This document shows positions 3,053-6,008 of a DNA stretch of 6,052 nt, in pieces (the first letter of the stretch is position 1; each line of letters opens with the position of its first letter). The position numbers and the translations under genes were made by a program. This stretch comes from a virus (taxonomy: Duplodnaviria > Heunggongvirae > Uroviricota > Caudoviricetes): IMG/VR virus record IMGVR_UViG_2651869755_000005. One strand, written 5' to 3'. Below the pieces are notes generated by a model. The model had not been told where the DNA came from. It did no database searches and worked only from the letters and a program-made list of their open reading frames with translations.

Positions 3053-3436
3053 ATGCGTGATATTCAGATGGTTCTTGAGCGTTGGGGTGCGTGGGCGGCT
3101 AATAATCATGAAGATGTGACCTGGTCGTCCATTGCCGCCGGTTTTAAGGGATTAATTCCTTCAAAAGTAAAATCTCGCCCGCAATGTTGTGACGATGACG
3201 CGATGATCATTTGCGGGTGCATGGCCCGTCTGAAAAAGAACAACAGCGATTTACACGATTTATTAGTAGATTATTATGTATGTGGTATGACATTCATGTC
3301 ACTGGCAAGTAAGCATTGCTGCTCGGATGGTTATATCGGGAAAAGGTTACAGAAGGCTGAGGGCATAATTGAAGGGATGTTAATGGCATTAGATATCCGG
3401 TTAGATATGGATATCGTTGCTAATAATTCTAATTGA
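3053..3436 (+). CDS. quuD: Q-family late-gene antiterminator (QuuD-like), 127 aa
   Basis: [31 protein letters not shown]...[16 protein letters not shown]... matches DLP12 QuuD in length and sequence as I recall it; ATG 3053 with GGAG SD at 3042..3045. Track start 3038 (TTG) rejected. Confidence 0.88.
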
Positions 3437-3454
3437 TATGCAATTGTTTACTAA

Positions 3455-3486
3455 AAGTTATTAAAAATGGGGCGTGGAAACGCCCC
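3455..3486 (-). terminator. Candidate rho-independent terminator on the - strand (likely nmpC terminator)
   Basis: Stem GGGGCG (3469..3474) / CGCCCC (3481..3486) with loop TGGAAA; on the - strand the hairpin is followed by ATTTTTAATAACTT (complement of 3455..3468). Confidence 0.5.
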
Positions 3487-3573
3487 CAAAATAAAGGGTA
3501 ATATATAACAGAAGGTTTATATAGTAAGAAGCAAGGTAGTGCTTCTAAAGGAAGTGGCTTGAGGGCTCCACTT

Positions 3574-3613
3574 ATATGTTGCGGAGGCAAAGCCTCCCGC
3601 AACATATCTTTTT
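3574..3613 (+). terminator. Strong rho-independent terminator on the + strand downstream of quuD
   Basis: About 14-bp stem ATATGTTGCGGAGG / CCTCCCGCAACATAT (one bulged C), loop CAAAG, followed by CTTTTT (3608..3613). The - strand side lacks a T-tract, so it is + strand specific. Confidence 0.6.
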
Positions 3614-3624
3614 CGTAAGTCAGA

Positions 3625-4707
3625 TTAGAACTGATAAACCAGACCTACAGCGACGATGTCGTCGGTATCAATACCAGCTGTTTTGGTAAACTTACTATCG
3701 TCAATTAAGTTGATTTTGTAATCAACAAAAGTAGACATGTTTTTATTAAAGTAGTAAGTAGCACCGACATCGACATACTTGACTAAGTCTCGGTCACCAT
3801 GAACACCAAGGTCTTTACCTTTTGACTGAAGGTAAGCAACAGATGGGCGCAGACCGAAGTCAAACTGATATTGTGCTACTGCTTCAAAGTTTTGTGCTTT
3901 GTTTGCAATATGGTTATTACCAAAAACGGTCATATTCTGAGTTTCAGAATATGTGGTAGCCAGATAGATATTGTTCGCATCATATTTCAGGCCTGCAGCC
4001 CATACTTCCGCATTTTTGCCGGAGGCATTGAATTTGCTCTTACCATAGGCGACCTGACCGTCAGTGCGATCTGATTTAGCATAGGTTGCACCCACGCCGA
4101 ATCCTTCATACTCATAAGTAGTGGAGAAACCGAAACCATCACCATTGGCTTCAGTTACGTCAGTGCGGTCATTTTTACCCTGATACTGAGCAGCAAAGTT
4201 CAGGCCATCGACCAGACCAAAGAAGTCGTTGTTACGATAAGTTGCAACACCAGTAGTGCGACCAGTCATGAACACATCTGTTTGGGTCCAGGTATCACCA
4301 CCGAATTCTGGCAGAACGTCAGTCCACGCACCGATGTCGTATGCTACACCGTAGTTACGGCCGTAATCGATGGAGCCGTAATCACCAAATTTCAGGCCTG
4401 CAAATGCAAGACGGGTTTTGTCTTTGGAAGAACCTTGAGATTCAGCACGGTTGCCTTTGAATTCATATTCCCACTGACCGAAACCAGTCAGTTGATCGTT
4501 GATTTGGGTTTCACCTTTGAAGCCAAGACGGGCATAAGTAGTATCACCATCATCTGCATCATTAGAGGAGAAGTAGTGCTTGGCATTAACTTTCCCGTAT
4601 AGATCCAGCTTGTTACTGTCTTTATTATAAATTTCAGCTGCCTGAGCAGACATCGCCATCAGTACTGATGCAGCTACAGCAGAAATTGCCACTGTTAATT
4701 TTTTCAT
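3625..4707 (-). CDS. nmpC: Outer-membrane general porin of the OmpC/OmpF/PhoE family (NmpC-like), apparently intact, with signal peptide
   Basis: Signal peptide [23 protein letters not shown] then [16 protein letters not shown]...; C-terminal ...VGLVYQF with terminal Phe typical of beta-barrel OMPs. Start ATG (complement of 4705..4707) chosen over the track's upstream Met (4767) because of the signal peptide and an AAGGG SD. Position and orientation between quuD and essD match DLP12 nmpC. Confidence 0.9.
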
Positions 4708-4990
4708 TGTACGCCCTTTTTTTGAACTATTATTAAAAAATGATGTCACTGCGCGATAAATATTCATCTAATCAATGTGATTATTTCAAGATGTAAGTTT
4801 TAGTTTCTCATTTAATTTGTGAAGTAGATCTCTATTTTTATCTGAACCTTTTCTATCTAATCCTATTCATGGCTCTTGTCTGAACAAAAATAAATCTATT
4901 AGCTAATTTATATTAATGGCACTTATTTATAAGTGCTCTATAATTCTTTAGCTTAATTTAAACAAACTAAAAATAACATCGGAAATTATT
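4708..4990 (-). promoter_or_regulatory. AT-rich upstream/5' leader region of the porin gene (promoter not mapped)
   Basis: Long AT-rich non-coding stretch upstream of the porin start, containing an 18-bp inverted repeat (4919..4936) and several TCTAT/ATCTA repeats; porin genes usually carry long regulated leaders. No -35/-10 pair is assigned with confidence. Confidence 0.4.
4919..4936. repeat. Perfect inverted repeat GCACTTAT-TT-ATAAGTGC (8-bp arms, 2-bp spacer)
   Basis: Read directly from the sequence; arms are exact reverse complements. Candidate dimeric regulator operator, about 215 bp upstream of the porin start codon. Confidence 0.5.
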
Positions 4991-5133
4991 AACTGATTAT
5001 TTGTTGAAGTTTTCTTATGTATTTGTGGTGGTGTTTTGAACACTCGGTGGCATTCTCACAAATATCATTTAGTAGTTTACGTACGTAAAAAATTGGTTAT
5101 GCTGTTAAGAGTGGTTACTTCGTCACACAGCTT

Positions 5134-5166
5134 AAACCCGCCGTCGAGCGGGTTTTTCCATTTTTT
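5134..5166 (+). terminator. Rho-independent terminator on the + strand about 130 bp upstream of essD (candidate tR'-like late terminator)
   Basis: Stem AAACCCGC (5134..5141) / GCGGGTTT (5148..5155), loop CGTCGA, followed by TTCCATTTTTT (to 5166). The - strand side has only a 3-T run. Confidence 0.65.
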
Positions 5167-5295
5167 GAGTCTCGATATTAGCTGATAACCCAATACCTGA
5201 GTTATTCACTGACTCCGAATCTGTTACGTTTCTGCCTTTATTGCGATACGTAATATCCCCTTAATTTACACCCGCTTTGTCTGCGAGGTGGGGTT

Positions 5296-5511
5296 ATGAA
5301 ATCCATGGATAAGTTAACAACGGGTGTCGCCTATGGCACCTCAGCAGGTAGTGCCGGTTACTGGTTTTTACAGCTGCTCGATAAAGTCACGCCCTCACAG
5401 TGGGCAGCAATAGGTGTGCTGGGTAGCCTGGTATTTGGCCTGCTGACGTACCTGACAAACCTTTATTTCAAGATTAAAGAAGATAAGCGCAAGGCTGCGA
5501 GAGGTGAATAA
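5296..5511 (+). CDS. essD: Holin, phage 21 S-like pinholin (EssD-like), 71 aa, with dual-start motif
   Basis: [71 protein letters not shown] resembles DLP12 EssD / S21 as I recall them; Met1-Lys2-Ser3-Met4 gives the two-start holin/antiholin arrangement; GAGGTGGGG SD upstream; two hydrophobic segments. Confidence 0.9.
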
Positions 5512-6008
5512 TGCCTCCATCATTACGAAAAGCCGTTGCTGCTGCTATTGGTGGCGGAGCAATTGCTATAGCATCAGTGTTAATCACTGGCCCAAGTGGT
5601 AACGATGGTCTGGAAGGTGTCAGCTACATACCATACAAAGATATTGTTGGTGTATGGACTGTATGTCACGGGCATACAGGAAAAGACATCATGCTCGGTA
5701 AAACGTATACCAAAGCAGAATGCAAAGCCCTCCTGAATAAAGACCTTGCCACGGTCGCCAGACAAATTAACCCGTACATCAAAGTCGATATACCGGAAAC
5801 AATGCGCGGCGCTCTTTACTCATTCGTTTACAACGTGGGTGCTGGCAATTTCAGAACATCGACGCTTCTTCGCAAAATAAACCAGGGCGATATCAAAGGC
5901 GCATGTGATCAGCTACGTCGCTGGACATATGCTGGCGGTAAGCAATGGAAAGGTCTCATGACTCGTCGTGAGATTGAGCGTGAAATCTGTTTGTGGGGTC
6001 AGCAATGA
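5511..6008 (+). CDS. rrrD: Phage lysozyme with N-terminal signal-anchor-release (SAR) domain (RrrD/R21-like), 165 aa
   Basis: N-terminal Gly/Ala-rich weakly hydrophobic segment [20 protein letters not shown] followed by a lysozyme domain (...[16 protein letters not shown]...); start overlaps the essD stop (TAATG); pairing with a pinholin is the phage 21 arrangement. Confidence 0.9.

Follow-up and report, generated by a model that had tools for sequence, protein, structure and literature searches.

Introduction

In phage lambda, the constitutive promoter pR' gives rise to a short RNA that ends at the terminator tR', and the antiterminator Q allows read-through into the S-R-Rz genes. The promoter has the composition TTGACT-17-TAAATT, followed by AACGATGGGTTAATTCG, and the terminated transcript, 6S RNA, has a length of 194 nt. 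Here, we describe the in silico analysis of a stretch of 6,052 nucleotides of phage DNA (IMG/VR record IMGVR_UViG_2651869755_000005; hereafter called the window) in which the same logic appears to be used. The segment at positions 5076-5166, located upstream of the lysis genes that start with essD, is very probably the late-gene control module of a DLP12-type prophage and homologous to pR' of the Shiga toxin (Stx) phage 933W, and the antiterminator QuuD, which is encoded by the window as well, would act on it.

The Q proteins that control such promoters belong to different families. Q of lambda is a member of PF03589, which is unrelated to PF06530, the family of QuuD. PF06530 is what Yin et al. 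(PMC9388147) define as the Q21 family, and the cassettes of the phage 21/P22 type belong to this same family. Their general layout, which the window appears to share, consists of a promoter, a Q-binding element (QBE) in this promoter, a short leader, and a hairpin plus U-tract within ~60 nt, as in the Salmonella phage SF3. The QBE of Q21 is a direct repeat, TGAGCA-N2-TGAGCA, located at -25 to -12, between the -35 and -10 hexamers (PMC6606751); this repeat is also seen in SF3, which has a Q21-like Q. With respect to the Stx phages, Sy et al. mapped the primary start of PR' in both Sakai Stx phages by differential RNA sequencing, and the 3' end of tR' was positioned by Term-seq 258 nt downstream of this start (PMC7547250).

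Results

The segment upstream of essD is homologous to the late promoters of Stx phages

A sensitive BLAST search of region 4960-5300 against phage records resulted in hundreds of matches to Stx phages, all of which were limited to 5073-5157. This region shows 78% identity to the segment of VT2-Sakai and 933W that is located directly after Q and contains pR', the Q-utilization (qut) site and the first terminator. In VT2-Sakai, where the segment begins within the last codons of gene Q, it is annotated as "putative late promoter" (TTTACG-16-TATCAT), "putative Q-utilization" and "possible rho-independent terminator", and the homologous segment is labelled pR' in the SC370 record. In addition, 5103-5157 is 96% identical to the leader that follows the Q gene of phage 1720a-02. 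Homology to the annotated late promoters of 933W and SC370 thus points to TTTACG (5076-5081, + strand) as the -35 hexamer and, after a spacer of 16 bp, TATGCT (5098-5103, + strand), which aligns with TATCAT of 933W, as the -10 hexamer. The similarity of the window to 933W, VT2-Sakai (Sp5) and H-19B extends to all parts of the module, since the -35 sequence TTTACG, the half-sites of a palindrome described below, a -10 hexamer of the form TAnnnT, the leader AAGAGTGGTTAC and the first hairpin with its U-tract are the same, and the Q proteins are 81% identical. The surroundings are different. Whereas the 933W promoter and the 3' end of Q overlap, with the stop codon of Q 21 nt before the leader, a cassette of 1.66 kb separates the two in the window. 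Moreover, 933W has a second terminator 258 nt downstream, the small RNA (sRNA) StxS, tRNAs and the stx genes, whereas the holin gene follows directly in the window.

The quuD gene (3053-3436, + strand) encodes a late antiterminator of the Q21 family (Pfam PF06530, E 6.7e-54). Analyses by tblastn showed that QuuD is 81% identical to Q of 933W over residues 1-120 of its 127 residues, and the identity to Q of 933W and the other Stx phages over this part is 81-84%. An assignment of Q of 933W to the Q82 family was rejected because tblastn revealed it to be QuuD-like. The similarity to the Q21 chains in the PDB is lower (E 4e-8), the alignment being limited to residues 8-88, and QuuD is shorter than Q21 (127 versus 162 aa). 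Its sequence thus places QuuD clearly in PF06530, as a remote relative of Q21, the structure of which has been solved.

Transcription start site and length of the predicted RNA

To place the promoter in a broader context, IMG/VR was scanned with a pattern of the conserved leader, and about 120 loci from IMG/VR and GenBank were analyzed. At the position of the -10 hexamer, 13 different hexamers were present, 11 of which fit TAnnnT. This position thus varies but largely keeps the TAnnnT form, which is the behaviour expected of a working -10 element.

The start site can be predicted by alignment with VT2-Sakai. The U-tract of the second terminator annotated in VT2-Sakai ends at position 995 of the locus analyzed (L002), and because the mapped 3' end is 258 nt downstream of the start, the latter corresponds to positions 737-739 (gataAGAG). 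These positions align with 5109-5111 of the window, and hence the predicted start is A5110 (+ strand, within 2 nt), equivalent to position ~577229 of Escherichia coli MG1655, in which the hairpin downstream occupies 577253-577274. A start at ~5110 and termination in the U-tract described below would yield an RNA of ~50 nt, which is shorter than lambda 6S RNA and also shorter than the 90-100 nt that an earlier note on this DNA had proposed. The supplements of Adams et al. 2021 contain no entry for essD or for coordinates beginning with 57722, 57723, 57727 or 57728. A search of Rfam with the whole window did not give a match at E <= 1, and no match of L002 787-1000, which covers StxS, better than E 1.8 was present in the window. 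The predicted short RNA is not StxS, and its likeness to lambda 6S RNA is one of analogy only.

The promoter-proximal terminator

The promoter is followed by an intrinsic terminator, the first tR' (5134-5166, + strand), located at about +25 to +57 from the predicted start. According to the terminator scan, its stem (5134-5155) has 8 pairs, 5 of which are G-C, and a loop of 6 nt, and is followed by TTCCATTTTT, giving a tail of the type U5-CCA-U6. The arms of the inverted repeat, AAACCCGC and GCGGGTTT, are 100% complementary, and folding of the RNA 5110-5166 placed the hairpin in both the minimum free energy and the centroid structure (-12 to -14 kcal/mol). The scan by itself did no better than chance, as 7 terminator-like sites were found in the window and 5.9 +/- 2.1 in shuffled sequences. 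What makes the terminator credible is its conservation: a hairpin plus U-tract is present at the same place in all related loci despite differing stems, of which there are at least four versions (CCCGC/GCGGG, CCUCGC/GCGGGG, CCCUGCC/GGCGGGG and CCGCC/GGCGG). The scan, the fold and this conservation bear out the strong + strand terminator to which the earlier note had drawn attention, and its observation that no + strand gene has its end at this place is correct as far as real genes are concerned, although an open reading frame (ORF) of 49 aa spans the site. This ORF (5036-5185) has a TTG start, covers both promoter and terminator and has no Pfam match. A hypothetical protein is annotated in this stretch in some phage records, but the ORF is probably not a gene.

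Between pR' and essD, no second terminator was seen in 5160-5300, which leaves 5134-5166 as the only one. The 258-nt PR' RNA of the Stx phages means that some polymerase passes the homologous first hairpin there. One may therefore ask whether the hairpin is mainly a terminator at all, or instead a leaky pause or RNA-stabilizing element, or the 3' module of an sRNA with a role in the lysogen. The Stx-phage transcripts, which run for 258 nt to the second terminator, would agree with this, and the conservation of the leader is far above what a simple terminator needs. The predicted ~50-nt RNA ends, according to its fold, in a hairpin and U-tail, a structure similar to the 3' ends of typical sRNAs. 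However, retention of hairpin and U-tract while the letters of the stem change is the signature of an intrinsic terminator, neither an Rfam match nor similarity to StxS speaks for an sRNA, and in the window this hairpin is the sole barrier before the lysis genes. We consider such a function unlikely, and prefer to interpret 5134-5166 as a terminator.

A palindrome overlapping the -35 hexamer varies with the type of Q

The -35 sequence TTTACG forms the left arm of a perfect palindrome of 14 bp, TTTACGTACGTAAA, which occupies positions 5076-5089 (centre at about -27.5), is followed by an A-tract and occurs exactly once in the window. In its 933W counterpart, TTTACGATCGTAAA, the two central bases differ, and yet the palindrome is still perfect. 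Among the ~120 loci, the centre of the palindrome is located 24-24.5 bp upstream of AAGAG, usually with an A-tract after it, and the palindromes fall into six classes: TTTACGnnCGTAAA, GCGTACGC, GCGGTCCGC, TTCGTTACGAA, TGGAATTCCA and TGTTATAACA. The leader downstream is common to all six.

Each locus was then paired with its nearest upstream Q gene, which resulted in 64 distinct Q sequences. Without a single exception, the palindrome class tracks the class of the Q helix-turn-helix. Within a class, the helix-turn-helix sequences are at least 51% identical (median 80%), and between classes at most 61% (median 37%). The N-terminal part of Q discriminates less well between palindrome classes; for example, Q proteins of class F share 82% identity with QuuD in residues 1-60 and only 44% in the helix-turn-helix, and their palindrome differs. 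Four of the six classes contain both adjacent Q genes, with stop codons 9-44 nt before the leader, and displaced ones (630-2465 nt). Because the palindrome class follows the Q helix-turn-helix whether Q is 9 or 2465 nt away, we infer that the palindrome at 5076-5089 is the QBE of QuuD, which would act on the promoter at 5076-5110. This candidate element is an inverted repeat that covers -34 to -21, over the -35 hexamer, and is unlike the QBE of Q21. Inspection of 5070-5110 confirmed the absence of a direct repeat of the Q21 type (TGAGCA-N2-TGAGCA).

A more distant version of the arrangement was observed in the APSE phages, whose Q is of the same family as QuuD. In the Hamiltonella phage APSE-7 (L130, 1596-1690), whose Q is ~45% identical to QuuD, the Q gene is followed by the palindrome GCGGTCCGC, an extended -10 (TGTTAATGT), a diverged leader and then a variable toxin cassette (CdtB), so that in this case the toxin cargo sits downstream of the apparent pR'.

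The initial transcribed region

The discriminator and initial transcribed region, GTTAAGAGTGGTTACTTCGTCACACAGCTT (5104-5133, + strand), form the conserved leader, which is common to all six promoter classes and is found with changes in mEp390 and APSE-7. We presume that this is the site of sigma70-dependent pausing and Q loading. Two candidates for a pause element are present on the + strand. AAGAGT (5107-5112) is the better conserved one and is separated by 17 bp from the palindrome, and it overlaps the start site; the other, TACTTC (5116-5121), reads TACATT in 933W and TTCTTC in mEp390. The 21PR' promoter differs in this respect, since its pause element, located at +2 to +7 and with a bubble from +3 to +15, is clearly -10-like, and no clear one is seen in the window. 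A lambda-like pause element is no more than a lead, as the likeness of the initial region to that of lambda pR' was not significant (equalled by 104 of 2000 shuffles).

In the GenBank record of PA-2 (J02580, 1986), a CRP-binding site is annotated on the part of the pR' leader equivalent to 5110-5130 (L001 1730-1750), where only a TCACA half-site is present. The T that creates this half-site (GTCACA versus GCCACA) is found in all porin-linked copies and in few others.

The porin cassette between quuD and the promoter

Comparison with 933W and three other relatives (L098, L050 and L067) showed that homology ends at 3411-3412 and resumes at 5073-5076. These breakpoints delimit a cassette of 1.66 kb (3412-5072), located between Q codon ~120 and pR', at the place where 933W has ~84 bp. 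The cassette contains an intact porin gene of the nmpC/lc type (3625-4707, - strand; Pfam Porin_1, E 1.9e-151), annotated as lc/NmpC/OmpD in phage records, which is antisense to late transcription. The last 7 codons of quuD, from ~3412, are part of the inserted cassette. The Q proteins of the QuuD/933W family are alike as far as ...RL(E/D)MD, near residue 120, and diverge beyond it. Their C-terminal tail, which has a length of 7 aa in QuuD and of 24 aa in Q of 933W, is encoded by the left edge of the cargo or promoter, whichever is present.

The region between the convergent quuD and porin genes (3437-3625) is highly structured (fold z = -4.3 versus shuffles). The terminator scan and folding of this region identified a terminator-like hairpin on the - strand at 3469-3486 (GGGGCGTTTCCACGCCCC followed by ATTTTTAATA), which is the probable end of the porin transcript. 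A strong hairpin on the + strand at 3574-3613, evident from sequence and fold, has a 15-bp stem and is followed by CTTTTT, and probably shields the porin gene from quuD read-through. An analogous bidirectional terminator is annotated right after Q in mEp390, which has the order Q, terminator pair, antisense gene, conserved leader and holin gene.

The stop codon of quuD is located 1673 nt before the leader, with the porin gene in antisense orientation in the gap, which confirms that Q and its site are about 1.7 kb apart, as the earlier note had pointed out. The window thus deviates from the arrangement by which a Q-dependent cassette is recognized, with pR' immediately downstream of the Q gene. 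This adjacency is not essential to function, because displacement by 630-2465 nt is common in the Q family of QuuD. In other relatives, the same gap is occupied by unrelated antisense cargo (0.6-2.5 kb), which makes the segment from Q codon ~120 to pR' a hotspot for cargo in this Q family. In the IMG/VR loci L008-L127, the gap between Q and leader contains 1-3 ORFs, nearly always in the orientation opposite to late transcription. Among their products are a KAP NTPase matching PADLOC PDC-S20 (L026, E 1e-177), an HEC-04-like ATPase (L108, E 4e-47) and an HNH protein matching PDC-M68A (L054, E 8e-27); several cassettes of 1-3 genes are without any match.

Other positions for the Q-responsive promoter

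The DLP12 lysis operon has been reported to be under the control of a Q-type antiterminator and RpoE (Rueggeberg et al. 2013, 2015, as presented in PMC7918800). The published promoter, essDp, concerns the same prophage type, Q gene and target operon (essD-ybcS-rzpD), but in that account it has been assigned to sigmaE, with a +1 at ~4756, about 350 bp upstream of the 933W-type promoter. This +1 follows from the reporter construct, which spans "-121 to +650" (PMC7918800): the forward primer Pdlp12Fw (PMC7918800) maps to 4635-4654 of the window, which puts the +1 near 4756. For the reverse primer, Pdlp12Rv, no match with up to 3 mismatches was found, and the +650 end is approximate because the primer as printed seems to differ by indels from ~5400-5421. 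Approximately at 4723-4756 on the + strand, GAACTAT (4724-4730) and TCACT (4746-4750) form a sequence, GAACTAT-N15/16-TCACT, that resembles a sigmaE promoter. The Q-responsive lysis promoter could then be essDp, in which case 5076-5166 would be a relic or a terminator only. However, the essDp site adjoins the porin start codon on the opposite strand, is not part of the pR' module, and lies in the upstream region of the porin gene, which is missing from 933W and other relatives. The cloned reporter fragment (4635 to ~5421) includes all of 5076-5166, and for this reason the reporter data cannot separate the two promoters. Moreover, loading in the absence of a binding element close to the promoter is not known for any member of the Q family of QuuD. 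We thus consider it improbable that Q acts at essDp instead of at pR', although the two promoters (4723-4756 and 5076-5110) may coexist.

The earlier note had placed the promoter at TTGAAC (5036-5041) with CAAATA (5059-5064) or AAATAT (5060-5065) as the -10, which would give a start at ~5071 and an RNA of 90-100 nt up to 5166, with TAGTAG (5070-5075) and TACGTAAAAAAT (5082-5093) as transcribed pause/qut motifs. These hexamers are present at the spacing of 17-18 nt (17 nt for CAAATA), and the AT-rich nmpC-essD spacer has been listed as a "promoter island" in K-12, which makes weak starts plausible. Nevertheless, no more than 6-7 of their 12 positions agree with the consensus, and the promoter scan (6 promoter-like sites in the window versus 10.5 in shuffles) does not list them. 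In addition, 5036-5065 is part of the porin cassette, at its right flank, and is missing from relatives such as L098 and 933W, in which the same palindrome and leader go with other cargo. The supposed pause motifs do exist as well, but they are located upstream of the start deduced above and would not be transcribed; they coincide with the conserved -35 and palindrome of the homologous promoter and are promoter DNA, in and around the -35 hexamer, the palindrome and the spacer. A promoter role for these hexamers is therefore very improbable.

Least credible is a pR' directly after quuD (3437-3573), the textbook location, with the strong + strand hairpin and CTTTTT at 3574-3613 as tR' and a Q-modified polymerase that would transcribe through both the whole antisense porin gene and the hairpin at 5134 before it arrives at essD, as this stretch (including 3487-3573, which the earlier note had named as an alternative) is within the variable inserted cassette with the hairpins that flank the porin gene, contains no promoter-like site according to the scan, has no homology to any pR' of the Q family of QuuD and lacks the palindrome, which is found at 5076-5089 and not near quuD, while in mEp390, which also has a terminator pair after Q and antisense cargo, the conserved leader is still beside the holin gene.

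Genetic context and distribution of the module

Annotation of ORFs together with Pfam searches showed that the whole window corresponds to the nin-to-lysis portion of a DLP12-type lambdoid prophage. Positions 1-206 are the 3' part of a transposase ORF of the IS3 family, with an rve_3/rve_2 integrase core; this suggests that the early region of the prophage is interrupted or truncated by an insertion sequence. Genes for NinB, a Dam-type methylase, NinE, NinX and RusA are located between the transposase and quuD. The first late gene, essD (5296-5511, + strand), encodes a holin of the S21 type (Pfam Phage_holin_2_1, E 2e-35) and is followed by rrrD (5511-6008, + strand), which encodes a signal-arrest-release (SAR) endolysin (Pfam Phage_lysozyme, E 1.3e-45). 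The terminator scan also identified a terminator-like + strand hairpin just 5' of ninB, at 732-755 (AGGCCTGC...GCAGGCCT followed by TTTTATTTGG). The equivalent position upstream of ninB is occupied by tR2 in lambda.

The region 3400-5320 is present with 100% identity in E. coli NCTC86 and other chromosomes, and at least 80% of it is matched in 2,464 of the 5,426 complete E. coli genomes. The Q-porin-holin module is also found in the phage records 2G7b, ev017, 4A7 and D2 (99-100% identity) and in the classical lc locus of PA-2 (89%), and it is present in K-12 MG1655, where IS5 is inserted in nmpC. A viable lambdoid phage requires a working Q-dependent late promoter, and by analogy we count the occurrence of the module in phage genome records as support for pR' being functional. 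None of the phage or chromosome records inspected has a promoter or terminator annotated at 5076-5166. We also observed that 434B (L004, OL657227.1), a laboratory isolate of phage 434, carries a substitution of the Q region of the K-12 DLP12 type in which the porin gene is interrupted by IS5. The pR' leader is the same, the lysis cassette is of the S21 type, and the record labels this region only as "region of 434 nonhomology".

Discussion

Control of the DLP12 lysis genes by Q, and the idea that it works across nmpC at a promoter ahead of essD, are already present in the literature, at least in the published accounts on which we drew. The analyses presented here indicate that 5076-5166 is an unannotated late promoter of the 933W type, belonging to the Q21 family. 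The homology to the module of 933W/VT2-Sakai, the 81% identity of QuuD to Q of 933W, the structure of the terminator, the constraint on the -10 hexamer and the covariation of palindrome and Q type together uphold the idea of a pR'/tR' pair in front of the lysis genes, which the earlier note had put forward.

We propose that the circuit works as follows. The sigma70 promoter TTTACG-16-TATGCT would initiate transcription at about A5110. Without QuuD, the polymerase would reach the hairpin and U-tract at 5134-5166, where many transcripts would stop after ~50 nt. QuuD, produced from 3053-3436, would diffuse to the palindrome TTTACGTACGTAAA and load onto polymerase that is held in the conserved initial transcribed region. 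The modified polymerase would then be terminator-resistant, as has been shown for the relative Q21, and read through into essD-rrrD-rzpD and further downstream late genes. The antisense porin cassette (3412-5072), which brings along flanking hairpins of its own, would have been inserted between Q codon ~120 and the promoter, and because Q acts in trans this insertion would leave the circuit undisturbed.

Several points weigh against this interpretation. First, the promoter matches the sigma70 consensus at 8 of 12 positions, which is under the threshold of the promoter scan. Second, a convincing sigma70 pause element was not found in the initial transcribed region: AAGAGT overlaps the start, TACTTC is without the T at -7, and about 5% of shuffles match the resemblance to the initial region of lambda pR'. 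Third, start site, RNA 3' end and Q dependence have all been carried over from relatives, so that the exact start, the pausing, the efficiency of the terminator and the binding of Q to the palindrome are predictions. Fourth, by analogy with the 258-nt RNA of the Stx phages, the first hairpin may be a leaky terminator, and as there is no second terminator before essD, leakiness would result in basal expression of the lysis genes. Fifth, the published work on DLP12, as far as presented in the source used here, puts the Q- and sigmaE-responsive promoter ~350 bp upstream. Finally, Q21, the sole relative that has been studied structurally, binds a direct repeat at -25 to -12, and the association between palindrome and Q could result in part from physical linkage and not from function.

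A wider proposal, for and against which we see the chances as evenly balanced, can be formulated from the sequence comparisons. In the QuuD/Q933W branch, the QBE would be an inverted repeat centred at about -27.5, over the -35 hexamer, with at least six classes of specificity that correspond to the helix-turn-helix of Q. Because Q acts in trans, the gap between Q codon ~120 and this element would have turned into a general insertion site for antisense cargo, among it porins and anti-phage defence genes. If this is true, the geometry of loading would be unlike that of Q21, whose direct repeat is located between -35 and -10; one possibility is that a symmetric dimer takes the place of sigma region 4 at initiation or immediately thereafter. 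In addition, the Q-responsive promoter of DLP12 would be the sigma70 promoter pR' at 5076-5110, and not the sigmaE promoter near 4756.

The analysis fixes the coordinates of the late promoter for a module carried nearly whole by no fewer than 2,464 of the 5,426 complete E. coli genomes, K-12 with its DLP12 prophage being among the carriers. It also provides a testable alternative to the published position of the promoter of the DLP12 lysis genes, for which links to biofilm, vesicle production and envelope physiology have been described. Beyond DLP12, the six pairs of palindrome and helix-turn-helix form a specificity table for the Q proteins of the 933W branch, which control the release of Shiga toxin, and the gap between Q and pR' is a place to seek prophage cargo, including defence genes. 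The element itself is ordinary lambdoid biology; the palindrome classes that match Q and the cargo site are of more interest.

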